Source: a virus (Duplodnaviria > Caudoviricetes). Taken from it: DNA of 42,745 nt. The notes below the pieces were generated by a model. It had not been told where the DNA came from, did no database searches, and worked only from the letters and a program-made list of their open reading frames with translations. The position numbers and the translations under genes were made by a program. The stretch spans positions 1 through 42,745 of IMG/VR virus record IMGVR_UViG_3300037479_000410. The stretch is one strand, 5' to 3'. This document shows positions 17,120-40,884 of the stretch, one piece after another (within the stretch, counting starts at the first letter, position 1; every line of letters begins with the position of its first letter).

Positions 17120-18070
17120 ATGGCGTACACTTGGACTTTCGACAAGGAATCGGGCGCATACACGTCCCACGCCATGAGCCGTCGCCTCTACATGGCGTCG
17201 GTCGAGGACGCGCACTTCGTGCCCTTCGCCAAGCCGGTCGACGGCTTCGGGAAGAACCGTGGCGAGTCGGTGCAGCTCATCCGGGTCCAGAACATCACCG
17301 AGCCCGGCGACGCGACCCTGAACGAGCAGACGCGCATCCCGATCGACACCTTCTCCCTCTCGAACGTCACCATCACGGTCTCCGAGTACGGGCGGGGCTG
17401 CGAGTACACGAGCCTCTCGCTGGATCTCTCCGAGTACGACTTGGAGAACCCGATCCAGATGAAGCTCAAGAGCCAGATGACGCTCACGCTCGACACGGCC
17501 GCCGCGGTCGCGTTTCGGGCGGCTCAGGTCAAGTACATCCCGACGGGCGTCACGGCACGGACGATCAACACGAACGGCACGACCGCGGACGCCGCGGCGA
17601 ACGTCAACATCTGGCACATCGAGGAGATCTCCGACTACATGTGGGACACCCTCAACTGTCCCAAGTACGCCGGGGACGACTACGTTGCCATCTTCCGGAC
17701 TCTCGGGCTCCGGGGCATCAAGCGCGACCCGCTCTGGGACGAGTGGCACAAGTACGTGACCCCGGAGGCGAAGGCGACGGGCGAGGTGGGCCGGATCGAG
17801 GCCATCCGGTTCATCCAGACGAACCACAACAACGCGCTCCGGAAGCTGACCGGCACGGGGTCCACGGACCTCCTCGGGGAGGGGGTCGTCTTCGGCCAGG
17901 ACGCCGTGGCGCTCGCCGAGGCGATCACGCCGCAGCTGCGCGCCGCGATCCCGCAGGACTACGGCCGCCAGCGCGGGGTCGCGTGGTACGGCGTGCTCAA
18001 GTTCGGGATCATCTGGGACACGGGGTCCCAGGGCGAGGCGCGCATCGTCCACGTGACGAGCACCGACTGA
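17120..18070 (+). CDS. Major capsid protein (N4 gp56-like HK97 fold)
   Basis: FGKNRGESV, TITVSEYG, GEVGRIEAIRFI, DYGRQRGVAWY; GAGGAG SD. Confidence 0.9.
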   Translation: MAYTWTFDKESGAYTSHAMSRRLYMASVEDAHFVPFAKPVDGFGKNRGESVQLIRVQNITEPGDATLNEQTRIPIDTFSLSNVTITVSEYGRGCEYTSLSLDLSEYDLENPIQMKLKSQMTLTLDTAAAVAFRAAQVKYIPTGVTARTINTNGTTADAAANVNIWHIEEISDYMWDTLNCPKYAGDDYVAIFRTLGLRGIKRDPLWDEWHKYVTPEAKATGEVGRIEAIRFIQTNHNNALRKLTGTGSTDLLGEGVVFGQDAVALAEAITPQLRAAIPQDYGRQRGVAWYGVLKFGIIWDTGSQGEARIVHVTSTD

Positions 18071-19421: not shown

Positions 19422-19796
19422 GTGGCGACGCGCCCCCACACCGAGAAGTTCATCGCGGCGGGGGTCGTCGAGGCCATCTGGACCGCGATCACGACCACGG
19501 ACCGGGACGGGTCGCCGCTGCGCTGCGCGAGCCACCCCTACCGCACCGTGCTCGTTCGCGGGACCCCAGGAGGCGGCAGCCCGAGCCTCGCCATCGAGGG
19601 CAGCGACAACGGCACGAATTGGGTGACGCTCGACGACAACGCGGGCGCGGCACTCACCTTCACCGCGGCGGGCTCGGGGCACTGTGAGACCTCCGTGCCC
19701 CACATCCGCCCGAACCTCTCCGGGGGCGATGGCACGACCAACCTGACGGTCGCGATCTACTCCCACGCCGTGCCGTCCGGGAGCGGGAGCCGATGA
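19422..19796 (+). CDS. Small beta-sandwich virion protein (no signal peptide)
   Basis: LAIEGSDNGTNWVTL...HIRP pattern. Confidence 0.7.
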   Translation: MATRPHTEKFIAAGVVEAIWTAITTTDRDGSPLRCASHPYRTVLVRGTPGGGSPSLAIEGSDNGTNWVTLDDNAGAALTFTAAGSGHCETSVPHIRPNLSGGDGTTNLTVAIYSHAVPSGSGSR

Positions 19797-20272
19797 CGCT
19801 CGCGGAAGCCCTGAAGGAGATCGGCACCCTTCAGCGGACCATGGCCGCCCTGCTGCACCTCAAGGAGATCGGCGACGCGATCCAGGCCGAGCACCAGCAG
19901 CGCGGCACCCTCCAGACGGAGGTGAAGCGGCTCGCCGAGCTCTACTCCAAGGCGAAGGTCGATCTCGCGGTGGTCGAGCAGGAGATCGTCCAGGCCCGCG
20001 AGCGGGCGCAGGTCGAGGTGGCCCGCCAGCGCGCGGTCGGCGACGAGCTTCGGATGGCGCAGGCCGCCGCCGCGGACGAAGCCGCTCGGAAGGCGACCAT
20101 GAAGCGGGAGGAGATCGAAGCGGCGGCGGCGGCGGCCGAGGCGCGCGTCCGCGAGGCGGGCGATCAGCTCCGCGCCCTCAAGGCCGAGATCGCCCGGGCG
20201 ACGACCACCCTCGAGGCCATCCGCAGCCAGCTCCGCCAGGCGCAGCACACCGCCGCCCAGGCGCTCGGGTAG
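19793..20272 (+). CDS. Coiled-coil protein
   Basis: Ala/Glu/Arg heptad-rich, 159 aa. Confidence 0.75.
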   Translation: MTLAEALKEIGTLQRTMAALLHLKEIGDAIQAEHQQRGTLQTEVKRLAELYSKAKVDLAVVEQEIVQARERAQVEVARQRAVGDELRMAQAAAADEAARKATMKREEIEAAAAAAEARVREAGDQLRALKAEIARATTTLEAIRSQLRQAQHTAAQALG

Positions 20273-20278
20273 CTCCTG

Positions 20279-20623
20279 ATGGCGCTCCTGCCGTTCTACC
20301 GCGCCGGCTATCTGGTCGTGGAGGGCGATCTCCTGACCAACGTCACGGCCAACACCGATGGGGTGTGGAGCCGGCTCGACGCCTCCCCCTGGACGGTAAG
20401 CGTCGAGACGACGAGCTTCAGCGGGACGATCAAGCTCCACGTCTCGAACAGCGTGAGCAAGCCCGCAGACAACGAGGCGGGCACGGTCCTGAACGCGGAC
20501 CTCGTGAACACCGAGCCGCAGCAGCACCTGGGGCGGTTCACGTGGGTCAAGGCGAGCGTCACGGGATACAGCGCCGGCACGGTGGACCGGGTGAGCGTCT
20601 ACGCGCGCGTCAAGGAGCGGTGA
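20279..20623 (+). CDS. Small beta-sandwich virion protein (no signal peptide)
   Basis: Similar pattern to 19422-19796; TGATG coupled to the next gene. Confidence 0.7.
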   Translation: MALLPFYRAGYLVVEGDLLTNVTANTDGVWSRLDASPWTVSVETTSFSGTIKLHVSNSVSKPADNEAGTVLNADLVNTEPQQHLGRFTWVKASVTGYSAGTVDRVSVYARVKER

Positions 20624-23115
20624 TGCATGCGCGCCTCCTTCTCCTGCTTCTCCTGATCGCCACTCCGCTCCGCGCGGAGACCGCGTATCCCTCCTCTGAT
20701 CTCGTCCACTTCGCGGGCGGGGTGCGGCCGGGAAACGTGACCTTCGCGCGGCTCTCCGCCACCGCCCGCAACGGGGCGCTCCGCTACTGCACGGATTGCA
20801 CCGCGGGAAACCCCTGCACCGGGTCCGGGACCGGCGCCCTCGCGCGACGCGAGAACGGCGTCTGGAACTGCGGGGGCGGGGCCGGAGGAGGCTCCTCGGC
20901 GTTCTCCGCCATCACGTCGGGGACGAACACGTCGGCCACCATGACCTGTGGGACCGGCTGCACCCTCAACACCTCAGGAGCAGGAGTGGTCGCCGCGAGC
21001 ACCGCGGCCGCTCTGGCCTCCGATCCCGGCGACTGCCCGACGAACCAGGCGACCGTCGGGGTGAACGCGGCCGGGACGGCACAGTCCTGCTTCCAGCCGG
21101 TCCTGATCTCGGGCACGCCCGCCAACGACCGGCTCGGGGTGTGGACGAGCGCGACGACCCAGGAGGGTGACCCGAACCTCACCTTCGACGGCACGACCCG
21201 GATCCTCCGGGTGGGGCAGAGCGGGGCGACCGGACGGGTGCGGGCGGACTGCGTGGCGGCGTCGAGCGACTGCTACGAGGATTTCACCGACAACGCGACC
21301 CACGCCGCCGCCCCGACCAGCGCGGGGATCACCCGGCAGTACAGCTTCAGCGGCCGGCGCTACCTCATCGTGAACGGGGGCGCCGGCGCGCCCGTCCTGA
21401 CCGACAGCTCGACCGACGTGCTCACCAACAAAGTCTTCAACACCGCCTCGGTCGGGAACTCCCTCCTGATCGACAACCAGGCGATCACCGACACCTCGGG
21501 GACCGCGAGCAAGGTCGCGACCGTCTCGGGCACGGTCGTCGACGGCAACTACGCCCGCTGGGACGCGACCGGGAACCTGGTCGATGCGGGAGCCCCCGGC
21601 GGCTCGACCCCGCGTCTCGATCAGATCCTGGACCCGACGGCCAACAAGAGCTTCGCCATGACGACCCGGACGCTCGGGTTCACGTTCGGGGACATCAACG
21701 CCGCGACGAGCTTCCAGCTGAGCCTCGGGGCCCTCACGACGACCCCGAACGTCACGCAGGTGTCGATCGTGGACGCGACCGGGAACACGAACACAGGCCC
21801 CTTGGTCAGCATCAACACGGTCGGCACCTCGACGGCGCCTCCCCTCCGAGTGACGGCGCAGGGGACGGCGAACGGCGTCCAGATGTCCACGGCCGGCGTC
21901 CTCTCCCCCATCGGGACGGGGCAGATCGCCCCGCGGCTCAACGACGTGACGAACCCGACCGCGAGCAAGACTTTCACGGTCGGGAACCAGATCGTCGAGT
22001 TCCTCTTCGGCTCCGCGACCGAGACCTCGCAGATGTTCGTCGTGAACGACAGCCCGAGCAACACGGGGACCGGCCCCCTCTTCCTCGCGGCGACGCAGAG
22101 CGCGAGCAACGCCGTCCCGGTCCGCTTCTGCGCCCGGGGGACGGCCAATTGCGTCGAGATGAACACCGCGGCCTCCCTCTTCCCGAGCGGGACGGGGAAG
22201 ATCAGCCCCCGCTGGAACGATCTCACAGCCTCGAACGGCGCCCTCGTCCTGACCGACGGCTCGGGAAGCGAGTTCCGGCTCACGGCCGCGGGGGGCACCT
22301 GGGCGTGGAACACGACCGGCTCGGGGAGCACCGGGACGACCGACAAGTTCACCTTCACCGATCACAACTCGAACACGGGCACGGGGGCCCTCGTGGCCGC
22401 GCGCACGGCTTCGGGGAGCAGCATGAAGCCCTTCGAAGCCTGTGTGGGCGGGACGACCAACTGCGTGCGGCTCAACAACGCGGGCGTGTTCGAGGCGACC
22501 GGCACGGCGTCGATCGCGACCGGGCCGCTCACCTGCCCGACGACCACCTGGATCCCGAGCGCGTTCGCGCCCCCCTCGGGGACGCCCGCGAACGTCTCGA
22601 CGGGCGGGACGGCGGGGCAGCTCCGCTGCTACCGGATGCGCCAGCAGTGTACGAAGACCGGGGCCACGCAGGTCGGCTGGCGCGTCGCCACCGGCTCGGC
22701 CACCCACGAATGCGCGGTCGCGATCTACAACTCGACCGGCACGACGCTCATCGCCAAGGCCGCGGCCCAGCTCTGCGACGCGAACAACACGGACGAGTCG
22801 GACACCGCGGTCGCGTCCTTCAACCTGACGGGCGGGACCGACTACCTCGTCTGCCACGCGACGAGCGTCGCGACAACCATCCTCGTCCAGGGGATGAACA
22901 ACGCGCTCGGGAACGTCTTGACGGATCAGTTCGTCCAGGGACCGACGACGGCGGCGGACGTGGCGCAGTTCAACGCCGCCTGCACGGCCGCCTCGACGCC
23001 CTACAGCTGCTGCACCGGGGCGCAGACCGGCACCTGCACCGGCATGCCCGCGAGCGTCGGCACGCTCTCGGGGATGAGCGGGACGCTCGGAGGGATCTAC
23101 CTTGTGGTGGAGTAG
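20623..23115 (+). CDS. Signal-peptide-bearing, Cys-rich fibre-like protein A (830 aa)
   Basis: AAGGAG SD; MHARLLLLLLLIATPLRA|ETAY; 24 Cys; TDVLTNK fibre motif; three internal repeats. Confidence 0.85.
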   Translation: MHARLLLLLLLIATPLRAETAYPSSDLVHFAGGVRPGNVTFARLSATARNGALRYCTDCTAGNPCTGSGTGALARRENGVWNCGGGAGGGSSAFSAITSGTNTSATMTCGTGCTLNTSGAGVVAASTAAALASDPGDCPTNQATVGVNAAGTAQSCFQPVLISGTPANDRLGVWTSATTQEGDPNLTFDGTTRILRVGQSGATGRVRADCVAASSDCYEDFTDNATHAAAPTSAGITRQYSFSGRRYLIVNGGAGAPVLTDSSTDVLTNKVFNTASVGNSLLIDNQAITDTSGTASKVATVSGTVVDGNYARWDATGNLVDAGAPGGSTPRLDQILDPTANKSFAMTTRTLGFTFGDINAATSFQLSLGALTTTPNVTQVSIVDATGNTNTGPLVSINTVGTSTAPPLRVTAQGTANGVQMSTAGVLSPIGTGQIAPRLNDVTNPTASKTFTVGNQIVEFLFGSATETSQMFVVNDSPSNTGTGPLFLAATQSASNAVPVRFCARGTANCVEMNTAASLFPSGTGKISPRWNDLTASNGALVLTDGSGSEFRLTAAGGTWAWNTTGSGSTGTTDKFTFTDHNSNTGTGALVAARTASGSSMKPFEACVGGTTNCVRLNNAGVFEATGTASIATGPLTCPTTTWIPSAFAPPSGTPANVSTGGTAGQLRCYRMRQQCTKTGATQVGWRVATGSATHECAVAIYNSTGTTLIAKAAAQLCDANNTDESDTAVASFNLTGGTDYLVCHATSVATTILVQGMNNALGNVLTDQFVQGPTTAADVAQFNAACTAASTPYSCCTGAQTGTCTGMPASVGTLSGMSGTLGGIYLVVE

Positions 23116-25333
23116 CCTCCTCGTCCTTCTCCTCGCGGTCCGAGCCGAGGCGGTCGTCCGCTTCGTGAACGGCGCCTGCACGCACAACGGGAACGGCACC
23201 GCCGCGACCTGCGCCGCGAGCGCCGGCGCGGCGGGGGCGTACAACACGATCGGGAACGGTGTGACGGCCATGTCCGCCGCGACGGGCGACCACCTGAACA
23301 TCCGCGGCCCGCACACCTGCACCGCGAACTGCGCGGTCACGAGCTTCGACGGAGTCTACTTCGAAGCCATCTCCCTTCGGAGTGGGATCGCGCTCCCGGG
23401 GCAGACCCTCAACTGCCCGGCGGGGAACCCGTGCGTCATCCAGGGCTGCCGGGTGGCCGACGGCTGCGCGGCGGACGAGGTGCCCATCGTCCGCGGGATG
23501 CGGCTTCGGAGCGACTGGACGGTCGCCTCGGGCTCGGGGTCGAGCACGATTTACACCCGGGCGATGGAAGCCCTGCCGGTCGCGGAGTCCTCGAACGTCC
23601 GCGACAGCTTCGATCCCGGCATGCTCCTCGAAGGCACGCAGTATCCGCTCACGATGATGCCCTACCAGGGCGACAACTCCTCCGCGCCGGTCGACGGGCG
23701 GTGGAGCTACAACACGTCGACCAACGCGATCTTCGTGAATCCCTCGGGGAGCGGCGACCCGAGCACGACCATCTACGTCCCGCACTTCTCCTGGAACTTC
23801 TGGTTCAACAACCCCTCGAACAACGTGACCGTCCGCCACATGGTCTGGGAGGGCTCGCGGCTCCGCTCCCTCCTCTGCTCCGGGACTGGCAGCCAGCCGG
23901 CCTCGGGGCTCCGCTTGGAGTTCATCACCCGCCGCTACGTCCGGCGGTTCTTCAACCACTCGGCCAACTGCCCGGGGTTCGTCGACGAGGACGGCACGGT
24001 CGAGTACGGCGGACGGGGGGCGAGCTGGTTCCTCGGGACCGGCGATGGCGTCTACGGCTGGCGGATGTTCGGCGTCCACGGGGGCGCGATCCGCCGCTGC
24101 ACCGTCCGGGCGCTCGGCTCCGACGGCACCACACGGCTCGCCGGCGGCGCGCAGCGGGCGTGCCCGTGGGCGCCGGCGCCCTGGAACACCCAGACCGGGA
24201 CGGCCATCGCTGCCTCGGCCGACGGCGTGCAGATCAAGCAGACTGAGGGGTTTACCGTCGAGGATTGCGTCGCCGAGGATCTCTGCGGCCCGGCCTACGT
24301 GGTCGACGTGACGCACAACATCACCATCCAGCGCAACCGCGCCGATCAGGTCCGCTCGGGCATCACCATCGGGAACCAGACGCCGGTCGCGGGCTTCAAC
24401 TACTCGGGGGGCGTGCTCGTGCAGGCGAACGTCCTTGACCGGGTGGGGCACGACGGCGCGAACTCCTGCGCCATGCAATTGACCGGGGGGAACGAGACGG
24501 ACGGCACGGTCTCCTTCCTCGCGCGCTTCTTCAACAACATGGTCTCCCGGATCGGCTTCGCGGGGCTCTGTCTCGACACCGATGGGACGCCGACCACGAA
24601 CGTCACGGTGGCGCACAACACGTTCACCATGAGCCGGAGCGTGTCGGGGGCGATCCCGCCGCGGGCGATCGCGGTCCGCGGGGCGGTCAGCAACGTCGTC
24701 CTCCGGAACAACGTGGCCGAGGGGTTGACGGGAGGGATGCTCCTCAGCTCGGCGGCCTGCGGCGCGGGCGCGTCGGCCTGTCTCGGCCTCACGCTCGACG
24801 GCGATGTGATGCACAACATCTCCGGCTGCGAGGTCGACTGGAACGCGCCCGTCTGGGGCACGGGAAACGGCGTCGACCCGGCCATGGGCACCTGCTCCTC
24901 GATGTTCTCGTTCAGCGTGGCGAAGCCGCCGAACTACTTCACCTCCACGGTCGGCCCGCTCAACTTCGTGAACCCGTCGCTCTCGCCGCCGAACCTCCAT
25001 CTCGGGAGCGGGAGCGCGGCGATCAACGCGGGCGTCAACTTCCCGACCGTGGGGTCGGACATTGACGGCGAGTCCCGGCCGCAGTCGAGCCTCTGGGACC
25101 CGGGCGCGGACGAGGTGACGGGCACGCCGCCGACGACCGCCACCACGACCACGAGCACGACCACCTCGACCACCACGACGAGCACTCTGGTCGGCGCGAC
25201 CACGACGACGAGCACGACCACCACGTCGACCACCACGACCAGCACGACCACGAGCACCACGAGCTCGACGACCTTCCCCCCGGGTGGGGCGATCGAGAAG
25301 CAGGGGCCGGTGCTCCAGGGAGTCGAGTTTTGA
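23102..25333 (+). CDS. Signal-peptide-bearing right-handed beta-helix (pectin-lyase-like/depolymerase) protein B with Thr-rich linker
   Basis: MWWSSLLVLLLAVRAEA|VV; NITIQRN/VLVQANV/VTVAHNT/VVLRNNV rungs; choice-of-anchor-Q-like LHLGSGSAAINAG...DIDGESRP...DPGADE; 20 Cys. Confidence 0.85.
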   Translation: MWWSSLLVLLLAVRAEAVVRFVNGACTHNGNGTAATCAASAGAAGAYNTIGNGVTAMSAATGDHLNIRGPHTCTANCAVTSFDGVYFEAISLRSGIALPGQTLNCPAGNPCVIQGCRVADGCAADEVPIVRGMRLRSDWTVASGSGSSTIYTRAMEALPVAESSNVRDSFDPGMLLEGTQYPLTMMPYQGDNSSAPVDGRWSYNTSTNAIFVNPSGSGDPSTTIYVPHFSWNFWFNNPSNNVTVRHMVWEGSRLRSLLCSGTGSQPASGLRLEFITRRYVRRFFNHSANCPGFVDEDGTVEYGGRGASWFLGTGDGVYGWRMFGVHGGAIRRCTVRALGSDGTTRLAGGAQRACPWAPAPWNTQTGTAIAASADGVQIKQTEGFTVEDCVAEDLCGPAYVVDVTHNITIQRNRADQVRSGITIGNQTPVAGFNYSGGVLVQANVLDRVGHDGANSCAMQLTGGNETDGTVSFLARFFNNMVSRIGFAGLCLDTDGTPTTNVTVAHNTFTMSRSVSGAIPPRAIAVRGAVSNVVLRNNVAEGLTGGMLLSSAACGAGASACLGLTLDGDVMHNISGCEVDWNAPVWGTGNGVDPAMGTCSSMFSFSVAKPPNYFTSTVGPLNFVNPSLSPPNLHLGSGSAAINAGVNFPTVGSDIDGESRPQSSLWDPGADEVTGTPPTTATTTTSTTTSTTTTSTLVGATTTTSTTTTSTTTTSTTTSTTSSTTFPPGGAIEKQGPVLQGVEF

Positions 25334-25659
25334 GACATCTCTGGGCGCTTGTCCTTCTCGTCGGGACGGCCCGGTGGCTGCCCGTGGAGCCCATCGTGGT
25401 CAACCACCTCCCGCGGGAGGTGAGCGCGTACCGGCTCTGGCGCTGCACGGGAACGTGCCCGCCGAACCGGACGGCCCGCTGGGTCGTGGTGAGCACCTAT
25501 CTCCCCTCGGCATGCGTGGACGGGCAGTGCAGCGGGACCGTGCGGCTCCGCGTGGACCGGCCGCTCACCGTCTTCTACGCCATGACGGCGGTGGTCGGCC
25601 CGCGGGGGTCGGATCAGACCGGCCTCGGGAACGTGAAGGCCGTCCGGGTGCGGCCCTGA
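25330..25659 (+). CDS. Small secreted FN3/Ig-like protein C
   Basis: MRHLWALVLLVGTA; AYRLWR...FYAMTAV; 4 Cys. Confidence 0.65.
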   Translation: MRHLWALVLLVGTARWLPVEPIVVNHLPREVSAYRLWRCTGTCPPNRTARWVVVSTYLPSACVDGQCSGTVRLRVDRPLTVFYAMTAVVGPRGSDQTGLGNVKAVRVRP

Positions 25660-25660
25660 G

Positions 25661-25957
25661 ATGCCCCGCCCCCGCGGTCCCGCCTTCGTCGCCTTTGCCG
25701 GCGTGGATGCTGCCGCCTACGGGGCGGTGTCGGTCACGGCCGCGACGCAGATCCTGGCCGTCAATCGGGATCGGCGCTCTTTCACGCTGATCCACGACTC
25801 GACGGATACGCTCTACCTCGGCTTCGACAGCGGCGTGACGACCGCGAACGGCTATCCGCTCCTTGGCAATCAGCCCTACAGCTCGCACGACTACGACGGG
25901 GCCGTGTGGGGCGTCTCCTCCGGCGGCGCGATCTCCGTCCGCTACCAGGAGTTCTAG
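25661..25957 (+). CDS. Small beta-sandwich virion protein (no signal peptide)
   Basis: VSVTAATQILAVNRDRRSFTL...LYLGFDSGVTTANGYPL; TAGTG coupled to the next gene. Confidence 0.75.
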   Translation: MPRPRGPAFVAFAGVDAAAYGAVSVTAATQILAVNRDRRSFTLIHDSTDTLYLGFDSGVTTANGYPLLGNQPYSSHDYDGAVWGVSSGGAISVRYQEF

Positions 25958-27558
25958 TGCTCCTCCTGCTCCTCCTCTGGGCGGGGGCGGCGTGGGCGCA
26001 GCCCGTCGTGGGGCCGGCCCCAGGCTACACGACCATTCAGGACGAGGGGACGGCCGTGCCCCGACGGCGGATCCTCAACGTCACGGGCGCGGGGGCGACC
26101 TGCACGGACGACACGACCCGCACGACCTGCGACTTCTCCGCCGGCGGGGGAGGGTGCGCGAACACGTACGCGACCGTCACCGGGGACGATGCGGTGGCGG
26201 CTACGGCGGCGGGCTGCACGGATGATCTCGACCTTCTGGGCTCGACGGACGGGATCGACGTGCTCTGCGAGAACGTGGCCCCCGACTCCTGCACGGTCTC
26301 GTTCGATGCGAGCGAGCTACCCGCGAACGACGTGTCCTGTGCGGCGGTGAGCGAAGGGGCAGGGACGGACATCTGCGCCGACCTGGAGGAGGAGACGCAC
26401 GCGGCGGAGCATTCGGCCGGTGCGGCCGATCCGATCACGGCGACGAACCTCGCGTCGAGCTGCACGGACGCCCAGGTGCTCGGCGGCACGTCTGGCGGCA
26501 CGGGGGTCGAGTGCCAGACGGACGACGACGTGCTCGACCTGCTCGGCGATCTCGGGGACCTCTGCGCGGCGGGCGAGTCCGTGCGGCGCGACGGCACGGA
26601 CACGGCGAACGAATGCTTCACGGCGGGCGATGTGACGGCGGTCGGCCCGGGCTGCGCGATCGGGGCGTGCTGGACCAACGGCGTCGCGACCAGCGGCTCG
26701 GTGCTCCTCAACTGGGAAGGGACGACGGTCGACGGGAACGATTTCCAGATGACCGTCCCAGCAAACCCGAGCGGGCTTCAGGTCTGGCTCGTCTCGGATG
26801 GGCCGGGAACGCTCAGCTTCCCCACCCCCGGCAACGACACGCTCGTCGCCCGGGCCACGACGGACACGCTCACCAACAAGACGATTGCGGGCGGGGACGC
26901 GGGGGCGGGCACGACGCGGCCGGCGGGCAGCAACATCGTGCAGGTGCGGACGCACAATACCGACTGCACGACGCTGACGGACGGGAAGCAGGGCGAGGTC
27001 TGCTGCGACGAGGACAACGGGCAGTGCTGGGTCTGCATCCCGAGCGCCGGGGACTGCGACACGGCAGGGGAGTGGGACGAGGTGGATCAGACCGCGGGTG
27101 GAGGTGGGGGCGGCGATACGGTGGTGCGGCTTGGCAGCGATGTGACGGAATCCGCCGGGTCCTACACCGACGTGACGGGCCTCTCCTTCACGGCCGCCGC
27201 GAGCACCGATTACGTGATCGAGGCGAACCTGCTCTATCGGTCGGCAGGCACAACGACCGGGATCTCGTTCGCCGTGAACGGTCCGGCGTCCCCGACGGCG
27301 GTGGTCGTCGCGACGCAGATCCACACCTCGCTCGCCAACGGCGGGGACATCCGCTACGCGGCGCGCGCCTACAACAGCGGCAACGATACGGCCACGGTCG
27401 ATACGGCCAACGCAGATCTACCCGCGCGGATGCAGATTCTTCTCCGCAACGGCACGACGAGCGGCACGGTCATCGTGCGCGTCCGGCGTGAAGTCGCCGG
27501 GAGCGCCACCGTGACCGTCCGGGCCGGAAGCGTCTTGCGCTATCGGCAGACGAGCTGA
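25957..27558 (+). CDS. Signal-peptide-bearing, acidic Cys-rich tail-fibre-like protein D (533 aa)
   Basis: AGGAG SD; MLLLLLLWAGAAWA|QP; IQDEG...LNVTGAGAT and TTDTLTNKT fibre motifs; 20 Cys. Confidence 0.8.
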   Translation: MLLLLLLWAGAAWAQPVVGPAPGYTTIQDEGTAVPRRRILNVTGAGATCTDDTTRTTCDFSAGGGGCANTYATVTGDDAVAATAAGCTDDLDLLGSTDGIDVLCENVAPDSCTVSFDASELPANDVSCAAVSEGAGTDICADLEEETHAAEHSAGAADPITATNLASSCTDAQVLGGTSGGTGVECQTDDDVLDLLGDLGDLCAAGESVRRDGTDTANECFTAGDVTAVGPGCAIGACWTNGVATSGSVLLNWEGTTVDGNDFQMTVPANPSGLQVWLVSDGPGTLSFPTPGNDTLVARATTDTLTNKTIAGGDAGAGTTRPAGSNIVQVRTHNTDCTTLTDGKQGEVCCDEDNGQCWVCIPSAGDCDTAGEWDEVDQTAGGGGGGDTVVRLGSDVTESAGSYTDVTGLSFTAAASTDYVIEANLLYRSAGTTTGISFAVNGPASPTAVVVATQIHTSLANGGDIRYAARAYNSGNDTATVDTANADLPARMQILLRNGTTSGTVIVRVRREVAGSATVTVRAGSVLRYRQTS

Positions 27559-27568
27559 GCCAAGGAGG

Positions 27569-28792
27569 ATGATGATGCGGAACCGATGGAGTCTCAACGC
27601 TCTGGGGCTGGTCGCTCTGGTGGCTGCGGCCCGGATGGCGGGGGCGCAGTGCCCCTACTTGCCGCCGGAGTCGAGCGGGAGCGGCACCATCTCCTCCTCG
27701 GGCGCAACCGTCACCGGGACGGGCACGGCCTTTCAGGACGAGATCGAGGTGGGCTTCATCCTGAAGGCGGCGAATCAGACGGTCGCGGTCACGGCGATCG
27801 CCAGCCAGACCTCGCTCACCACGAGCCCGAGCTTCGCGCCGGCTCTCAGCGGGGCGACCTTCACGAAGTCCCCGCCGCCCTACCAGATCGACGGCAGCAA
27901 CTGTGCGCCCGTCTACCTGGTCCGCGCCGACGGCAGCCACGTGGGCCCGCGCCTGCAGGTGATCGGCCCGACGCCGCCGACCGCGGCCACCGGGAACGGC
28001 ATCACGCCGGCGGCGGCGCTGCACGTCCAGGCCTCACCCGGCGGGGCGACCACGGACGCGACCGGCGATGTCGGCGGCACGGGGGGCGCGGGCATCCTGA
28101 TCTTGGGGAAGGGCGGCAACGCCCCCGCGGGGAGCACACCCGGCGTGGGCGGCGGCTATACGCTGTTCGCCGGCGACGGCGGCGACATCTCTTCCGGCAC
28201 CGGCGGCACGGCCGGCACGGGAGGGAGCTTCGTCCTCGACGCCGGCAAGGGCGGCACGGCGGGCTCGGGCAACACGAACGGCAACGGCGGCCACATCGAG
28301 ATCAACGCCGGGCCCGCGGGGTCGGGCGCGGGCAGCGCGGGGGTCGCGGGCTCGGTCCGCCTCGGCAACGTGAACGGGAACGTCGAGATCTACGGCGCCA
28401 AGGCCGCCGCCCACACGGTCCTCTCGACGACCGCGGACACGTCGATCGCGTCCACGAGCGAGGTGCAGCTCCTCTCGGGGAGCGTCACGACGCGAAGCGG
28501 GAAGACGATTATAGTCACAGCCGCGGTGAAGCTCGTCAACTCGGCGAGCGCGTCGCGATCCTACACCTTCCAGCTCCGCCGCGGCGGCACAGGCTGCGCG
28601 GACGGCACGGCGGTGACGGACGGCGACGGCTACCTCCCCGGCACGGGTGCAGGCGACCGCTGGACCCATGTCTACAGTGCGAACGAGTCGTCGCCCGGCG
28701 GGACCGTCACGTACCGCTTGTGCGCGAAGTCCTCGAGCGCGACCGGGACGCAGACGGCCGAGTACGCGCAGATGACGTTCACGGAGTTGTGA
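27569..28792 (+). CDS. Signal-peptide-bearing Gly-rich fibre-like protein E
   Basis: AAGGAGG SD; MMMRNRWSLNALGLVALVAAARMAGA|QC; GTISSSGATVTGTGTAF tail motif; 4 Cys. Confidence 0.85.
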   Translation: MMMRNRWSLNALGLVALVAAARMAGAQCPYLPPESSGSGTISSSGATVTGTGTAFQDEIEVGFILKAANQTVAVTAIASQTSLTTSPSFAPALSGATFTKSPPPYQIDGSNCAPVYLVRADGSHVGPRLQVIGPTPPTAATGNGITPAAALHVQASPGGATTDATGDVGGTGGAGILILGKGGNAPAGSTPGVGGGYTLFAGDGGDISSGTGGTAGTGGSFVLDAGKGGTAGSGNTNGNGGHIEINAGPAGSGAGSAGVAGSVRLGNVNGNVEIYGAKAAAHTVLSTTADTSIASTSEVQLLSGSVTTRSGKTIIVTAAVKLVNSASASRSYTFQLRRGGTGCADGTAVTDGDGYLPGTGAGDRWTHVYSANESSPGGTVTYRLCAKSSSATGTQTAEYAQMTFTEL

Positions 28793-28823
28793 TGGTATCG
28801 TCGGAGCAAGGAGGTCTGCTTCC

Positions 28824-29143
28824 ATGACGACACTCGTGCTCCTCATGCTGCTCGTCTCCGGCTGCACGCCCGTGATCGCGTGGTTCGGCTCGTCGATCAG
28901 CTATGGAACCCTCTCTCCTACGTGAGCGACTACAACGCGCTCATCCGCTCGACGTATCCCACACGCTACATCGAGCTCGACGGGGAGTTCCTCGCGCGCG
29001 GGGGGACCTTGGCCATGTTCCCCGACGGGCTCCATCCGAACTGCGACGGCTACACGCTCATGGCGGAGATCGTGGCGGACGCCCTCGCGACACGAGGGGT
29101 CGCGACGCTCAAGTCCCCTCCGCCGGACCTCTCCTGCTCCTAG
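28824..29143 (+). pseudogene. SGNH/GDSL-hydrolase-like exported protein, internally deleted and frameshifted
   Basis: Frame 1: MTTLVLLMLLVSGC...IAWFGSSISYG, stop at 28925; other frame: YNALIR...DGLHPNCDGYTLMA. Confidence 0.65.
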
Positions 29144-29150
29144 GCGACGC

Positions 29151-30209
29151 ATGGCGAACTTCCAGCTGACCCGGGACCTCTGGACCGACGCGCTCCATCT
29201 GGCCGGGGAGCTGACTGACGGCACCTCGCGCTACGGCACCCCGCAGTACGACGGGAAGGCATTGGAGTACCTGAACGCCGTGAACCGCCTCCTCTACACC
29301 GGGGGGCGATTGGGTAGTGTGCTGGTGCTCGCGCACGACTGGCTCTGGGCCCGGCCGTGGCCGCGGCTTCGGCTGAACCTCGAATCGGCGTGGTCCGGGA
29401 GCGGCACCGTGACCCTTACCTCCGGGAGCACGACGGCGACGCTCGACGCCGCGCCCCCGACGGGGATGAGCCTCGCCAACTGGCGTCTCTGGGTGTGGGC
29501 CAACTCCTCAGCCGGGAACGAGGAGCCGTGGACCGTGGCCGTCCAGGCGCACACCGCGGGCTCGACCACCGTGACGCTTCGCGCAGCTTGGCCGTACCCG
29601 AACGGTGTCGCGGGGAACAGCGGAAGCGAGCAGTTCGTGTTCGGCCGGGTCGAGTACCTCCTGACGACCGTCGCGTCCGACTTCCTCCGCTTCGTCGGCC
29701 CCTTCTGGATGATGGGCCGCCCGGGGTACATCCCGATTATCTCCGCCGAGCGCCTCCAGCAGGATTTCCCGCTGTTACGGACGAGCGACGGGCTCCCTGA
29801 GGCGGCGGCCATCGTCGGAGCGTCCACAGACAGCCCCGGTATCTACGTCGTCCAGTTCAGCCACTACCTGAAGAAGATGACGGGCCTGGCGGACCGACGC
29901 TTTCTCTCCTTGGAGTTCGACCGCATCCCGATGCCGACGACGCTGAGCGCGGGCGCGACCGAGGAGCCCGCCGTGCCGTTGCCCCATCGACGGCTCCTGT
30001 CCTTCGGCGCCGCCTACTACCTCTGCCTGGACAAGTCCAGCGCCAAGGCCGCGATCATGGAGCGGGAGTTCGCCCAGGGCCTCTCCGCGATGGTCGAGGA
30101 GCACGAGAAGATCGTTGCCGGGATGACCGAGGAGTATGGGAGGATTCCCCCCTACGCCGGGCGGCGGCGACGGCTCGAGACGGGCGGGTGGGGGCTCCCG
30201 GTCGACTGA
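29151..30209 (+). CDS. Head-tail adaptor / tail tubular A-like protein
   Basis: ALEYLNAV N-terminus; EEPAVPLPHRRLLSFGA C-terminus; position before the nozzle. Confidence 0.7.
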   Translation: MANFQLTRDLWTDALHLAGELTDGTSRYGTPQYDGKALEYLNAVNRLLYTGGRLGSVLVLAHDWLWARPWPRLRLNLESAWSGSGTVTLTSGSTTATLDAAPPTGMSLANWRLWVWANSSAGNEEPWTVAVQAHTAGSTTVTLRAAWPYPNGVAGNSGSEQFVFGRVEYLLTTVASDFLRFVGPFWMMGRPGYIPIISAERLQQDFPLLRTSDGLPEAAAIVGASTDSPGIYVVQFSHYLKKMTGLADRRFLSLEFDRIPMPTTLSAGATEEPAVPLPHRRLLSFGAAYYLCLDKSSAKAAIMEREFAQGLSAMVEEHEKIVAGMTEEYGRIPPYAGRRRRLETGGWGLPVD

Positions 30210-32641
30210 TGCCGGGGCATGCGAGCGACCTCCTGGTCGCGGAGATCCTCTTCGGCGACTACGGCTTGAGCGCGGACGTGAATCCGCTCCGCATCCCCCC
30301 GGGGGCGCTCACCGAAGCCGACGGCGTGACGCTCGAAGGCGGCGCCCTGGAGAAGGAGCCTGGCGCGACGCGCTTCGATACCGTGTCGCTGGCCCCCTTG
30401 GCGAGCGGCACCCTCTCGGCCGCCAACCTCACCTGGGCGGCGGCGCTCGTGACCTTCAAGAAGGCGAGCGGAGCCGCGGTCGTGGCGACGACGCTCGGCA
30501 CCTTCCAAAACGCCAGCGGCACGACGTTCCCGATCACCGTCGCCGGCGGCGCGAGCGTCGGGCATCGGGTCGTGGTCGTCGCCCGCGACAACGCGCAAGC
30601 CTCCCAGAGCTGCACCGTGACCGACAGCCGGGGGAACACCTACACACCGCACGTGACGCTCACGAACCTCGGGGGCACCATGACCCTCCGCGTGTTCTCG
30701 GCGCGCGTGACGACTGCTCTCCTGGTGGGCGACACCATCACCGTCACCTACGGGCTGTCGATCGCGACCGGGGCGACGGCCGGCACGGCGGTGGGGTTCG
30801 CGGACGACGACAACGTGGTCGATCGCCTGAGCACCGCGACCGGGCAGTTTCCGGGGGGGACGGACATCACCGTCGGCCCGACGGCCCCCCTGACCTACGC
30901 GCCCGAGCTGCTCGTCTACTGCGCCGCCTGGCCGAGCGCCGCGACGCACACCCCGGGGTCGAACTTCACGGAGCAGAACGAGCACGATCAGGTGCAGGTG
31001 TCGTATCGACTCGATGCGACCTCGCCCACCATTATCGCCCTCGCGGACTACCACCCCCACCAGCCGACCACCTACAGCTCCGGCTTCAGCGTTTCTGCGG
31101 TCAAGGGGAGCGTGACGGTGACCGGCACGGGCACGCCGAGCTTCGACACCCGGGTGTTCCACAACGACCTGATCGAGCTGAGCACGGGGGGCGTGACGGA
31201 GCGCCGGCGCGTCACGGCGGTCACGGCGACGACGGTCACCGTCGCCGATCCATGGACGACCGATTTCACCGCCCTTACGACCTACACCGTCGTATCGCGG
31301 CAGCGGCTGCTGAGCGCGACCACGGCCGGGTCGATCTTCAAGGAGCGGAACGGTGACCTCGATGCGGTCGCGCTCGTGAGCGGGATCTCCCCGGCGCATC
31401 CCGGCGTCTTCGTCCAGGCCGGGAAGGAAGGCGGGGCGGCGAGCAACCGGAAGCTCTTCTATCTGAACGGCCATGACCCCGTACGCGCGGCGGACGGCGA
31501 CGGGGCCATGACGGCGCTCAACGCCGCGAGCGAGGCCAACGAGGACTGGACCGGGACGCACCAGCCGTCGTTCGCCACTGTGTATCGGAATCGGCTGGTC
31601 GCGCTGGGCAACCAGAACCACCCGCACCGGGTCTATCTCTCCCGGGCGGCGAATCACCGGGACTTCCGCACGATCAGCGGGGGCGATGTGCGCTTGCAGT
31701 ACGACGCGCACACGAACGTCGGGGAGCGCTTGGTGACGGCGGCGGTCGTGCAGGACCGGCTCTTCCTCTTCAAGTATCCCGTCGGGATCATCTGGCTCGA
31801 CGCCACGGACGCGAGCACGGCCAACTGGACGGTCAAGATCCACTCGACCGCCCTCGGGGTGGCGCCCTCGCCCTACGCCACCCTCGCGATCGACGACGAC
31901 GTGCTCTTCATCACACCGGACGCCCGGTTCCATCTCCTCACGGCGATCGACAGCCCGAACGGGTTTCGGGCGAGCGACCTCTCGGCCGCGCTCCGCTTGG
32001 AGCGCTGGCTGCGGGCGAACATCAACACCGCCCGGCTGAACGAGACCGTCTCGGCGTGGCATCCGCAGAGCCGGACGGCGTACTTCGGCCTCCCCGGCAC
32101 CGGGAGCCCCATGAACAGCGTCGTCGTCCGGTTCGACTTCTCCACGGTGGGGCCGCCGAAGTTCACGTACACCCATCTCTACAGCCCGACCGCGATGGCG
32201 ACCCGGACGGATCCCAACACCGGCGAGCAGCGGGTGATGATCGGGGAGGGCGGGACGGTCTTCGTGATCGACCCCCTGAATGCGACCGGCTACACGAAGA
32301 ACGGCCAGGGCTACACCTCACGGGCGAAGACGCCGTACTCGGACCTGCGCTTCGTCGATCCCCGCTACGCGCGGTATCGGAAGAACTTTCAGGGTGTGGA
32401 GCTGGTGTTCGACCGCGCGGCGGGGACGGAGCAGGTAACGGTCGAGGTGCAGGTGGACGGCACCCGGGTCAGCGAGTCAGGGCTGGTCGCCCGGGCGGAC
32501 CGCGTGGTCGACCGCCTCCCGATCCAGGGCGAAGGGGTCGGCGTCGAGACGATCCTCACGACCCCCGCGACGAGCACCACCACGTACCGCCTCCTCGCCC
32601 TCCGGTATCTCTTCGAGCTGACCGGGACCGAGATGCGCTAG
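30209..32641 (+). CDS. Tail nozzle / tubular B (P22 gp10-like beta-propeller) with inserted domains
   Basis: TVYRNRLV, RVYLSRA, RLFLFKY blade motifs; 810 aa. Confidence 0.7.
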   Translation: MPGHASDLLVAEILFGDYGLSADVNPLRIPPGALTEADGVTLEGGALEKEPGATRFDTVSLAPLASGTLSAANLTWAAALVTFKKASGAAVVATTLGTFQNASGTTFPITVAGGASVGHRVVVVARDNAQASQSCTVTDSRGNTYTPHVTLTNLGGTMTLRVFSARVTTALLVGDTITVTYGLSIATGATAGTAVGFADDDNVVDRLSTATGQFPGGTDITVGPTAPLTYAPELLVYCAAWPSAATHTPGSNFTEQNEHDQVQVSYRLDATSPTIIALADYHPHQPTTYSSGFSVSAVKGSVTVTGTGTPSFDTRVFHNDLIELSTGGVTERRRVTAVTATTVTVADPWTTDFTALTTYTVVSRQRLLSATTAGSIFKERNGDLDAVALVSGISPAHPGVFVQAGKEGGAASNRKLFYLNGHDPVRAADGDGAMTALNAASEANEDWTGTHQPSFATVYRNRLVALGNQNHPHRVYLSRAANHRDFRTISGGDVRLQYDAHTNVGERLVTAAVVQDRLFLFKYPVGIIWLDATDASTANWTVKIHSTALGVAPSPYATLAIDDDVLFITPDARFHLLTAIDSPNGFRASDLSAALRLERWLRANINTARLNETVSAWHPQSRTAYFGLPGTGSPMNSVVVRFDFSTVGPPKFTYTHLYSPTAMATRTDPNTGEQRVMIGEGGTVFVIDPLNATGYTKNGQGYTSRAKTPYSDLRFVDPRYARYRKNFQGVELVFDRAAGTEQVTVEVQVDGTRVSESGLVARADRVVDRLPIQGEGVGVETILTTPATSTTTYRLLALRYLFELTGTEMR

Positions 32642-32868
32642 GGCGCGTAGATCAGGACGCGGTGCTGCTCGCCGTAGACGGCCCGCCGGCAGGCGGCCGG
32701 GTCCCCGCCCTGCGCCACGCAGTGCTCGACATCCTCGGCTCGTGCTTCTGCGATCTCTCGCTCGGCGCAGGCGTAGTTGTAGATGCCCATGGTGGCGATC
32801 CCGAGGGCGATCTTGTCCGGAACGGTGCAGCATCCCGTGAGGAGGAGAAGGCCGCAGAGCGCCCGCAC
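32638..32868 (-). CDS. Small lipoprotein, antisense to the late operon
   Basis: GAGAGGGG SD; MRALCGLLLLTGC lipobox. Confidence 0.7.
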   Translation of the reverse strand: MRALCGLLLLTGCCTVPDKIALGIATMGIYNYACAEREIAEARAEDVEHCVAQGGDPAACRRAVYGEQHRVLIYAP

Positions 32869-32931: not shown

Positions 32932-34086
32932 ATGGGTATGGGTGGGGCTCTCGGGGCTGCGGGGTTCGGCCTCCAGGTGGCCGGGCAGATCCAGCAGACG
33001 TTCGGGGAGTGGCTGAAGGCCCGCGAGGCGAAAGCCTTCCTCGAGAAGGAGCGCCACCGCCTCCAGAAGCTCCAGTACCCCACCCGGGGCGAGCAGCGCC
33101 GCCGCCGCCGGCTCCGGGAGGTCCTGGGGGCTGCGGAGGCCGCCGGGCAGCGGCAGTCCTTCGGCATCAACCTGATTCAGCCCGAGCTGTTCCGCGAAGC
33201 AGGGTTCGAGCTCGATGTGGATCCCGCGTCGGTCGCGCGCGCCGCCGCCGCCCGGGGCGAGGTCGAAGCCGCGGAGCAGCGGATCGCCGGCCTCCGCGCT
33301 GCCCTTGCTGGGACACGGGGCAAGAAGAAGGGCCAGCGGAAGCAGCTTCGTCGGGAGACGAGCCAGCTGACCAACCTCCTCTTCGCCGCGGCCGAGGCGG
33401 AGGCGGCGGCCAACCGCCCGAGGGGGATCCGACGGGTGGGAGAGCCCGGTGGGGTGCTCGGGACCGAGCGGGACCGCCGGCTCTTCGACGTGCTCCTCGG
33501 GCGGATCGAGACGGCCGCCCGGGGAGAGGCGGGGGCCGACCCCGAATTGGAGCGCCGGCTCGCCGAGGAGGAGCGGCAGGTCCACGAGGTGCTCCGCCGC
33601 CAGCTCGGCCCCGACTACGCGACCAGCTCGGCGGGCATCGAGGCGTTGGCGGAGTTCAGCCAGCGGGCGAACGAGCTGCGGACGGAGTTCGCGCGGCGGG
33701 ACCTGACGGAGCTTTTGCCCATCATCGGCGCCGAGCGGGGCCGGCTCGCGGAGATCGCCGGGGTGCGCCAGGCCCTCCTCGCCTTCCCGGCCGTGCTGCC
33801 GGGCGAGGCGGCGCGGACGCTTGCGAGCTTGGCGGGCGTCAACCTCGAGGAGCTGCGGATGATGCAGCAGGACCGGCTCGCCATGCTAGCCCAGGGGCAG
33901 TTCCCGACGCCGCCCTCGCCCATCGGGATCGGCCTCGTGAGCGGCGGGGAGGGGATGGAGCGGAGCGGCTCGGCGCTCTCGATGGGCGCGCTCTTGGGTG
34001 GCGGGGGTGGCGGGGGTGGCTTCGGCGGTGCTTCGCTCCGAAACTCGCGCATCGCCTCCCAGGCGTTCCAGGTGGACAACCCCTAG
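32932..34086 (+). CDS. Putative internal virion/DNA ejection protein 1
   Basis: Gly/Ala hydrophobic N-terminus, helical body; position after the nozzle. Confidence 0.65.
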   Translation: MGMGGALGAAGFGLQVAGQIQQTFGEWLKAREAKAFLEKERHRLQKLQYPTRGEQRRRRRLREVLGAAEAAGQRQSFGINLIQPELFREAGFELDVDPASVARAAAARGEVEAAEQRIAGLRAALAGTRGKKKGQRKQLRRETSQLTNLLFAAAEAEAAANRPRGIRRVGEPGGVLGTERDRRLFDVLLGRIETAARGEAGADPELERRLAEEERQVHEVLRRQLGPDYATSSAGIEALAEFSQRANELRTEFARRDLTELLPIIGAERGRLAEIAGVRQALLAFPAVLPGEAARTLASLAGVNLEELRMMQQDRLAMLAQGQFPTPPSPIGIGLVSGGEGMERSGSALSMGALLGGGGGGGGFGGASLRNSRIASQAFQVDNP

Positions 34087-34087
34087 C

Positions 34088-35335
34088 ATGCTGTCCGGTC
34101 AGCCATTCGCCGACGCCACCGCCCGACGCGGGATGGACCCGAGCCAGCCGACCGGGCTCTCCACCGGACTCGCGGGGGATCCAGGGTTGGAGCCGCCCCA
34201 GCACCAGCCGATGAAGCTCGGGGAGATCGGCGCCCTCACCGACGAGCTGATGGCCGCCATGCCCGAGCTGCAGGCACTCGAAGGGAACGAGACGGCCTTC
34301 GACGTGGGGCCGCTCACGCTCGACCAGAAGCTCGGCCTGATGGGCGTCGCGATGACAAATCCCGACGGGGCGATCCAGCTCATGCGGTCGATCCAGGACA
34401 GTCGGCTCCGCCGACGCACCGCCCGAGCGCAGGCGCGGCTGAAGCTTCTGAACGCCGTGGTCGGCTTCAAGGACGCCGAGTCCAAGATGGCCCTCGCCTT
34501 CTTCGACGCGAACATGCGGGCGAACCGCGAGAGGCGGGAGACCTTGGCGAACGAAGCCACCATGCAGCTTATGCAGGCGCAGACGGAGCTGGCCCACGCC
34601 AACACCGCCCTGGCAAAGAAGAAGGCCGCCGAGGAGCCCGCGGTGCCCGCGGTGAATCTCGTCCTGGATCGCCTCCGCTCGCGTCTCACTCCGAGCCCGC
34701 CGCCCGCCGCGCCCGCCGGAGTCGGCTTCCCTTCACCGCTCTCGGCCCATGCGGAGGGCGAGCCGCTGAACCGTCGGGTGGCCGGGCCGACCGCCCCGGC
34801 GACGCTCGCCGAGCAGCTCGGCCTCAGCATCGGGGAGAAGCTCACCATCGGGGGGGAAGGCTTGAGCCTCAGCCTGAGCGGCCCGGAAGCCCCCTCGGCC
34901 GGCGAGCGTCAAGCGCTTGCGGAAGGGCAGGCGGCGCTCGACCTGCTCGAGTCCGTGCGCTTCCTCGCCAGCCCCGAGGCGGGGGGCAATATCATCGGGC
35001 CGATCTCGGGCAGGGTGGCGAGGGGTCGCGCGCGCACGGTCGGGCTACCAGCGGGCGAGGGCGATCTCTACGCCGCCGTCGAAGCCCTCCGCAACCAGGT
35101 CATCCGCAACATCTCCGGGGCGCAGCTGAGCGAGCAGGAGGCGAAGCGGATCGAGCGGCAGCTCCCGGACATTGGGCTCCCGTACGCGACCTTTGTCGCG
35201 CGCCTCCTCGCCACCCGCGACAACATCGGCTTCCTCCAGCAGCGGCGGGCCGAGGTGCTCCGGGGGAGCGGTGTGCAGGTGCCGACCATGGCCGCGCCCA
35301 CCGCCCCGCGTCGGCTCCTCGAGCTCTTCCGGTAA
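34088..35335 (+). CDS. Putative internal virion/DNA ejection protein 2
   Basis: C-terminal RNISGAQLSEQEAKRIERQLP motif. Confidence 0.65.
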   Translation: MLSGQPFADATARRGMDPSQPTGLSTGLAGDPGLEPPQHQPMKLGEIGALTDELMAAMPELQALEGNETAFDVGPLTLDQKLGLMGVAMTNPDGAIQLMRSIQDSRLRRRTARAQARLKLLNAVVGFKDAESKMALAFFDANMRANRERRETLANEATMQLMQAQTELAHANTALAKKKAAEEPAVPAVNLVLDRLRSRLTPSPPPAAPAGVGFPSPLSAHAEGEPLNRRVAGPTAPATLAEQLGLSIGEKLTIGGEGLSLSLSGPEAPSAGERQALAEGQAALDLLESVRFLASPEAGGNIIGPISGRVARGRARTVGLPAGEGDLYAAVEALRNQVIRNISGAQLSEQEAKRIERQLPDIGLPYATFVARLLATRDNIGFLQQRRAEVLRGSGVQVPTMAAPTAPRRLLELFR

Positions 35336-35336
35336 G

Positions 35337-37344: not shown

Positions 37345-37761
37345 GTGCCGCGGCTCGTGCCTGACGAGACTTGGGCCGTGCTCACCATCTGGCAAGAGGC
37401 CCGTGGGGAAGCGGCCGAGGGCCGGGTGGCGGTCGCGGAGGTGATCCGAAACCGCATGCGCAGGCAGTACCAGAGCGACGGGACGGTCGTCGGCACGGTC
37501 CTGCGGCCGTACCAGTTCTCAGGCTGGAACACCCGGGACGTGAACCGCCGCCTCTCGGCCGTCCTCCACGACGACGACCCGAGCGTCATCGCCTGCCGGG
37601 ATGCGTGGCACTTGGCTCTGGAAGGCTCGGAGATAACGAACGGCGCCGTCCTCTACTGCAATCCCAAGGTGATCGCCGAGCTGCCGCTGTGGGTGGCGGC
37701 CTCCCGGGAGGTCGCCGTGATCGGCCGCCATCACTTCTACGTGCCGGGCGAATGGGCATGA
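37345..37761 (+). CDS. Endolysin, SleB/Hydrolase_2 cell-wall hydrolase family
   Basis: TIWQEARGE...AVAEVIRNR, PYQFS, TNGAVLY, IGRHHFY. Confidence 0.9.
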   Translation: MPRLVPDETWAVLTIWQEARGEAAEGRVAVAEVIRNRMRRQYQSDGTVVGTVLRPYQFSGWNTRDVNRRLSAVLHDDDPSVIACRDAWHLALEGSEITNGAVLYCNPKVIAELPLWVAASREVAVIGRHHFYVPGEWA

Positions 37762-40668: not shown

Positions 40669-40884
40669 TCACGCGGATGATGTCCGGCTCTCCGACGTGC
40701 TCTGCGACCGGCCAGCACTCCACGACCACGCCCGCTCCCGCGACCGCGACCACGACCGCGACCACGACCACGACCACGACCGCGACCACGACCACGACCG
40801 CGACCACGGCTCCCGCGACCACGACCACGACCACGACCGCGACCCCGACGAATCAAACCCGCTGCGCGCGACGGTCGCGACCAT
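40669..40884 (-). CDS. Ser-Arg/Ser-Trp dipeptide-repeat peptide
   Basis: SRSWSWSWSR...; hexamer array TCG(C/T)GG; ATG 4 nt after the upstream stop. Confidence 0.6.
   Translation of the reverse strand: MVATVARSGFDSSGSRSWSWSWSREPWSRSWSWSRSWSWSWSRSWSRSRERAWSWSAGRSQSTSESRTSSA

Follow-up and report, generated by a model that had tools for sequence, protein, structure and literature searches.

The window, that is the whole stretch of DNA analysed here (42,745 nucleotides), is the entire IMG/VR record IMGVR_UViG_3300037479_000410, which is linear and 99% complete by CheckV, and belongs to a temperate, podovirus-like phage with an integrase at 1548–2435. Between its capsid and nozzle genes lie five genes, A to E, whose products start with hydrophobic leaders. 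It is likely that A, B, D and E are Sec-exported appendages, which mature in the periplasm and dock at lysis on particles built in the cytoplasm; C is probably another. A wider reading, toward which the balance tilts slightly, is that a widespread class of tailed phages, met in podo-, sipho- and myo-type contexts at GC contents of 38–68%, builds its virion in two compartments. Leaderless docks would be made in the cytoplasm and disulfide-stapled fibres and enzymes in the periplasm, the two being joined at lysis via a four-Cys knob on a XepA/YomS-like pentamer or on a stand-alone anchor, and via a C-terminal β-peptide; this phage would have lost its cytoplasmic tail fibre.

It is generally held that tailed phages complete their assembly in the cytoplasm before lysis. 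In the proposed scheme, the late operon would make the capsid, the tail and the leaderless docks in the cytoplasm, and proteins A–E would be sent through Sec, relieved of their leaders, oxidised and kept in the periplasm. They would meet the particles once the inner membrane fails at the holin lesion, or after full lysis, and their binding to the docks would need no catalyst. P22 tailspikes bind particles without a catalyst in vitro. Docking after the holin lesion or lysis follows from assuming both export with cleavage and a location on the virion, and we infer every cellular step from the sequence features and the comparative pattern described below.

The five genes are all on the plus strand. 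Protein A (20623–23115; 830 residues, 24 Cys) consists of a leader, a four-Cys knob (about residues 39–83), a mosaic fibre-like body and a Cys-rich C-terminal domain (about 636–830). Protein B (23102–25333; 743 residues, 20 Cys) contains a leader, a right-handed β-helix, a choice-of-anchor Q domain, a Thr-rich linker and a short C-terminal β-peptide, and C (25330–25659; 109 residues, 4 Cys) has the leader with the weakest cleavage site. In D (25957–27558; 533 residues, 20 Cys) the leader precedes a Cys-rich fibre-like stalk, which holds all the Cys within residues 49–367, and a Cys-free tip. Protein E (27569–28792; 407 residues, 4 Cys) has, behind its leader, an N-terminal domain of tail-fibre PHROGs, a Gly-rich middle part and an Ig-like tip with two conserved Cys. 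Each of the five genes has a purine-rich Shine-Dalgarno-like stretch at its start and overlaps or abuts the preceding gene; one downstream start in D, at 26056, is also preceded by GAGGGG. An earlier sequence-only reading had placed five co-oriented leader genes at these starts and given these Cys counts, all even, against two each in portal, capsid and nozzle, and both statements agree with the open reading frames.

The leaders were assessed with our own hydrophobic-leader heuristic, core structural proteins serving as the control, and cleavage sites were read by eye. All of A–E pass the heuristic, D without a basic n-region. Homologues of A number 149, of which 136 start with Met; 106 of these 136 pass, and many of those that fail look like signals by eye. 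In the control, comprising terminase, portal, scaffold, capsid, adaptor, nozzle, ejection and anchor proteins from the loci fetched for comparison, 1 of 161 passes. The n-region is net basic in 103 of the 106 leader-bearing A homologues and Gln stands at position +1 in 41 of them. Across the 23 A homologues with an N-terminal knob, identity is 0.29 in the leader versus 0.62 in the knob, and in P0034 the residues past the Ala site are conserved while the leaders diverge. Of the 106, 49 carry Ala-x-Ala after the h-region, modestly more than the 23–30 counted in windows farther downstream.

A search with the D-stalk motif returned 25 viral loci with GC contents of 38–68%, whose neighbours include capsid, portal, tail and ejection genes. 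A hydrophobic leader is visible by eye in all 24 loci with an intact 5′ end; the heuristic recognises 17 of the 22 distinct proteins, four are missed despite a visible leader and one is cut. Conservation of the leaders in related phage contigs, which the sequence-only reading had called for, is therefore found for both A and D. Judged from these sequences, the leaders are a conserved property across unrelated phages, a family trait, and the predicted export of A–E is well supported because leaders recur in homologues of A and D but hardly in core structural proteins. Signal peptidase I would very probably cleave them.

Both the Cys density (2.6 versus 1.1 per 100 residues) and the frequency of an even Cys count (78 of 106, p=1e-6, versus 14 of the remaining 30) are higher in the leader-bearing A homologues. 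Conserved Cys residues are found in the A-type knob and in the tip of E. The knob motif of A occurs in 29 distinct proteins, of which 21 have a clear leader, six have none, one is cut and one is unclear. The even-Cys skew fits pairing; most of the cysteines very likely pair, and host Dsb-type enzymes are somewhat likely to be the catalysts.

Protein B matches PF13229 (E 1e-7) and NF041518, and all ten of its listed Atlas look-alikes are bacterial secreted-type β-helix proteins; it is likely, by these resemblances, to bind or cleave polysaccharides. A C-terminal peptide like that of B is present on Tunturi_2 gp14, discussed below, and on a protein of locus L015. The tether pattern describing this peptide is found in 3 of 113 leader-bearing versus 1 of 1291 other open reading frames, a count to be read with the fact that the pattern was drawn up after those three had been seen, and an earlier, looser pattern showed little difference (4 of 244 versus 17 of 1998). 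As a lead, this C-terminal peptide may be the part by which B is attached. For C no homologue was found in family and profile searches or among the open reading frames of the fetched loci.

D and E, but neither B nor C, have modules in common with tail fibres that are annotated as such or anchored. The tip of D (residues 381–529) matches the tip of the leaderless anchored fibre of L048 (E 8e-7, 30% identity over 138 residues), and the N-terminus of E matches phrog_1980 (E 6e-7) and phrog_1591, both tail-fibre PHROGs, at profile positions 6–73. The model of E is of low confidence (predicted local distance difference test, pLDDT, 41) and matched generic Ig-like folds only. Sequence searches of the PDB gave nothing significant for the N-terminal domain of E (best match the distal tail protein 23gd_B, E 0.79) or for the knob, the small protein g124, whole E and D. 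Among 50,697 phage records E has no match, and A and D have one each. The Pfam S74 chaperone has no match in A–E. Homology of the N-terminal domain of E to the insertions of the adaptor or nozzle was also considered and is unsupported (adaptor E 2.4, nozzle no match).

The slot between capsid and adaptor, in which A–E lie, holds small β-proteins in the group of phages with related capsids, and pairs of a base and a leaderless fibre are found there in L005 and L058. In L058 a 95-residue small β-protein is followed by a leaderless 607-residue protein with a Leu-repeat N-terminus, which is the gene layout of the RcGTA head spike. In the window, A is overlapped by g114 (20279–20623, plus strand), a leaderless, Cys-free jelly roll, which by model and homologues is predicted to be a pentameric spike base and is the candidate dock for A. 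Its AF2 model (pLDDT 80) is structurally closest to XepA (6i56, Z 11.1) and YomS (6i5o, Z 11.0), with a root mean square deviation of 2.5 over 96 aligned residues, and the next match has Z 8.1; the RcGTA base Rcc01079 is not among the best 50 structural matches listed. The XepA and YomS pentamers were proposed by their authors to bind capsid vertices (PMC6834076). Close homologues of g114 among the 8407 open reading frames of the fetched loci occur in L100 and L113/114 only, where they overlap a gene for a leader and knob with a body different from that of A, and a DNA pattern search for g114 returned only these two known contigs.

Of the matches to the knob itself, 39 place it at the N-terminus, 24 at the C-terminus and 16 in the interior, a varied position as expected if it acts as a connector. 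In L087 a leaderless, 130-residue stand-alone fibre anchor (phrog_1640 N-terminus, E 5e-19) directly precedes a protein made of a leader, an A-type knob and collagen, an arrangement that can be read as a fibre split at the membrane. Because g114 resembles pentamers proposed to bind capsid vertices and pairs with leader-plus-knob genes, and because the varied position of the knob suits a connector, a role as head spike is more likely for A than one as tail fibre. The full proposal, that leaderless small jelly rolls on capsid or tail are the docks and that the knob of A sits on the XepA/YomS-like g114, A then probably being a head spike, stands slightly below an even chance. Co-prediction of four g114 copies with the N-terminal 70 residues of A gave a score of 0.02 and a mark of 0.32, which is no evidence either way. 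Two further knob proteins were noted: a leader-bearing β-helix protein of L113 (7839–9716) has a four-Cys knob at each terminus and could form head-to-tail chains, and L033 (MW202444.1, 36356–40117), with a lambda-like tail gene order, carries in the usual side-fibre position a 1253-residue leader-bearing protein that ends in the knob of A.

Other leaderless small proteins accompany the block. The 98-residue g98 (25661–25957, plus strand; phrog_30212), a Cys-free small viral protein, overlaps the start of D and is a candidate second base. Its Atlas clusters are viral at 0.96, and among named families PRD1_P5_spike_N comes nearest, at 0.89 (32% of members), which is a lead only; on that lead g98 may serve as a dock for D. 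Upstream of g114, g124 (19422–19796, plus strand) encodes a leaderless small β-protein, a candidate capsid-surface base and distant homologue of g114 (HHalign probability 81, E 1e-5), whose family numbers 24 open reading frames in the fetched loci, the window's own copy included. It is followed by g159 (19793–20272, plus strand), leaderless and Cys-free, with a coiled coil predicted by eye from the sequence and possibly a stalk. Genes of the g124 family often have as their next downstream neighbour an Ala/Glu-rich gene of about 155 residues that looks like a coiled coil (window 19422–20272; L005, L054, L071, L113), possibly as a base and stalk pair.

The relatives were picked by capsid alone and comprise 40/41 viral loci together with L037; 19 with less than 4 kb downstream were dropped and 22 were read. 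In all 14 viral loci whose sequence can be read beyond the nozzle, a leaderless anchored fibre follows the nozzle gene; the extended contig of L037 has the anchor as well (E 6e-37). These fibres (L002, L041, L048 and others) possess an N-terminal tail anchor, no leader and 0–5 Cys, and the 14 loci have no leader gene before the adaptor, apart from one false hit. A profile of the 14 anchors finds no significant match in the window (best E 0.52), in agreement with the sequence-only reading, in which no other fibre or spike gene was visible. The window capsid groups with that of anchor-bearing L002 (support 97/98), and therefore the anchored fibre appears to have been lost in this phage; that D and E replace it is favoured by a small measure. 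Leader genes occupy the capsid–adaptor slot in 3 of the 22 relatives (L037, L064 and L075).

Three other features of this region were recorded. The position taken by the anchored tail fibre in relatives is filled in the window by a 76-residue lipoprotein-like open reading frame with 5 Cys on the minus strand (32638–32868), possibly a moron or an exclusion protein. The nozzle has 810 residues versus about 530 in most relatives and 778–783 in L043, L045 and L049, and its extra β-rich part (30209–31300) may bind receptors. In L048, L050–L052, L067 and L068 two genes start with the same tail-anchor peptide, possibly a branched or alternative fibre set.

Two cultured phages have comparable blocks. 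In Cellulophaga phage phi18:3 (KC821620; Pachyviridae) the adjacent gp085–gp087 bear Sec-type leaders and are annotated as "structural protein, experimental MS/MS", i.e. detected by tandem mass spectrometry; they are 3 of 12 proteins so annotated. Unlike A–E, to which they are unrelated, these proteins have 0–3 Cys and come from a phage of a Bacteroidota host, and the record is silent on the leaders. The Tunturiibacter podophage Tunturi_2 (PP885685), which forms plaques (PMC11924767), has a leader block gp12–gp17 with 20, 10, 21, 2, 2 and 34 Cys, of which five of six proteins pass the leader heuristic; one is annotated as a tail fibre and one as a pectin lyase with the B-like C-terminal peptide. 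Its block differs in being placed after the tail gene, in having no BLAST match to A–E and in lacking the knob. The main text of the Tunturi paper contains neither the term "signal peptide" nor proteomics (PMC11924767).

In the RcGTA head spike, one fibre (Rcc01080) docks by nine hydrophobic N-terminal residues on the jelly-roll pentamer Rcc01079 (PMC7296036). As with g114 and A, a small jelly-roll gene is directly upstream of the fibre gene, but the RcGTA fibre uses its own hydrophobic docking peptide of alternating hydrophobic residues and Gly, which is absent from A–E, while A has a cleavable-type leader and a four-Cys knob. The MAT fibres of Bdellovibrio are phage-like mosaic trimeric fibres with signal peptides and disulphides, displayed on the cell surface (PMC10769870), and they indicate that such fibres can mature after export. 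They differ from A–E in being bacterium-encoded cell-surface proteins; they have a conserved N-terminal domain of about 130 residues and, in 13 of 21, an S74 chaperone. The leaderless anchored fibres of the capsid group share the tip of D, in the case of L048, but have a tail anchor, no leader and few Cys. A–E would work partly like RcGTA head spikes and MAT fibres but seem to belong to neither. According to a 2026 preprint, the tailspike of P22 is without a signal peptide since export is not needed (10.64898/2026.09.13.751334), and the text of the HFTV1 structure paper does not contain the term "signal peptide" (PMC12494034). In the literature searched, with subscription papers and supplements outside its scope, no account of exported or post-lysis-attached appendages in tailed phages was found.

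A number of observations weigh against exported appendages that dock at lysis, and they bear on three other explanations. It is unlikely that A–E are exported but never reach the virion, acting as lysogen adhesins like the MAT fibres, receptor-masking decoys or capsule-degrading lysis helpers, with the nozzle insertion binding the receptor. The phage has an integrase and is temperate, and therefore lysogen functions of A–E are possible; the look-alikes of B are cellular secreted enzymes, and P0177 (an E homologue) and P0013 (a D homologue) resemble cellular surface proteins by eye. The L037 contig carries three leader genes in the slot plus a normal anchored fibre; a block of this kind can therefore be supplementary and need not be essential, and the insertion of the 810-residue nozzle could bind the receptor without A–E. 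The phi18:3 counterparts, annotated as virion proteins, speak for a place on the particle, but they are Cys-poor and without homology to A–E, and mass spectrometry of purified particles can include co-purified material. On the other side, A–E are translationally coupled in the late operon, where no space is left for a separate promoter, and genes of leaderless capsid-type jelly rolls lie among them. A–E show no membrane anchor, no other fibre is present in the window and the plaque-forming Tunturi_2 has the same kind of block. On balance A–E rather likely end up on the virion.

The other two explanations keep A–E on the particle. That the leaders are hydrophobic docking peptides, as in RcGTA, or are bypassed by internal starts such as the possible second start of D, assembly being the ordinary cytoplasmic one and the Cys binding metal or being oxidised by air after release, is very unlikely: the leaders have the three-part layout of signals with a basic n-region, they diverge in sequence while the residues past the Ala site are conserved, the alternating Leu-Gly N-terminus is found in 2 of the 106 leader-bearing A homologues and in none of A–E, and the even-Cys skew tracks the leader. 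It draws on the pentameric jelly-roll-like fold predicted for g114, on the Leu-repeat protein that follows such a base in L058 and, above all for the disulfide argument, on the six leaderless knob proteins, which keep the four Cys of the knob and have up to 20 Cys in all. Because of these six, Cys richness does not need export, and the disulfide argument is weakened; the CxxC of the knob could bind metal, and bonds could form after release. The pairing of g114 with the knob is seen in 2 of 33 knob contigs, which are mutually similar and were both fetched via the knob.

We give very little weight to the third possibility, in which A–E are exported and on the virion but are optional, head-only adhesion decorations, the enlarged nozzle being the true tail receptor binder. 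It shares export and late docking with the preferred explanation, and this assessment covers the accessory, head-only form alone. The place of the block in a slot that elsewhere holds base and fibre pairs, the coexistence of block and tail fibre in L037 and the loss of any leaderless tail anchor on which D and E could dock are in its favour, but the tip of D and the N-terminus of E are tail-fibre modules and L043, L045 and L049, with their enlarged nozzles, still carry an anchored fibre. The preferred explanation thus keeps part of what the sequence-only reading had proposed. Its "whole tail-fibre module" fits the modules of D and E but not the head-decoration slot or the enzyme-like B, and its five genes stand, although the leaderless 98-residue gene between C and D, the 114-residue gene overlapping A and a frameshifted lipobox gene after E had been overlooked. 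Regarding its two-compartment assembly, export is supported by the leaders, the even-Cys skew, the lack of an anchored fibre and the phi18:3 annotation, while virion location, Dsb action and holin timing are what we infer from them.

The remaining genes of the region, all on the plus strand, are spaced so tightly from capsid to nozzle that no gap exceeds 31 nucleotides and most genes overlap. The major capsid protein (17120–18070; phrog_1357, E 7e-16) is leaderless with 2 Cys. After E follows a sixth leader gene (28824–29143), a broken lipoprotein gene with a lipobox leader and then a frameshift, whose motifs we take to be those of an SGNH esterase; it falls short of the full domain, and the frameshift is seen in contigs of two studies. 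The leaderless adaptor (29151–30209) is named by position and by homology to relatives, and the nozzle (30209–32641; phrog_376, 2 Cys) has a long N-terminal β-rich insertion. Other landmarks are the terminase at 10529, the portal at 12118 (2 Cys), likely ejection proteins at 32932–37085 and, at 37345, an endolysin of the Hydrolase_2 type. Membrane-helix genes adjoin a lipobox gene at 38557, and since these look like spanins, they suggest a host with two membranes.

The window sequence occurs in two freshwater runs. A Logan contig covering 19000–34500, which may come from the source sample, shows 0 differences to the window, as do the listed pieces from a second study, 28093–29005 among them. 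A host-directed scan of genomes turned up three contigs, all from metagenome bins and belonging to three phyla, cluster look-ups returned no organism as host, and a metagenome scan with the adaptor as query gave one weak locus; a Binatia-like host is a guess from the Thr-rich linkers. A Cro/YdaS-like open reading frame on the plus strand overlaps the 3′ end of the minus-strand integrase frame (region 1248–2435). An ACCACG-type repeat at 40690–40860, among early genes, resembles the Thr linker of B (77% over 98 nucleotides), its coding frame being ambiguous.

If exported appendages do dock on finished particles, lysis would also be an assembly step, and the host Sec and Dsb systems would become dependencies of the phage. 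Adhesins and enzymes that cells secrete could be taken into the virion as whole proteins, many genes called "secreted morons" in phage genomes would be structural genes, and the docking modules would represent a novel type of plug-in connector. The window adds a natural control group with leaderless fibres, an instance of anchored-fibre loss and a candidate dock–plug pair, and the cultured phages Tunturi_2 and phi18:3 make the question testable now.

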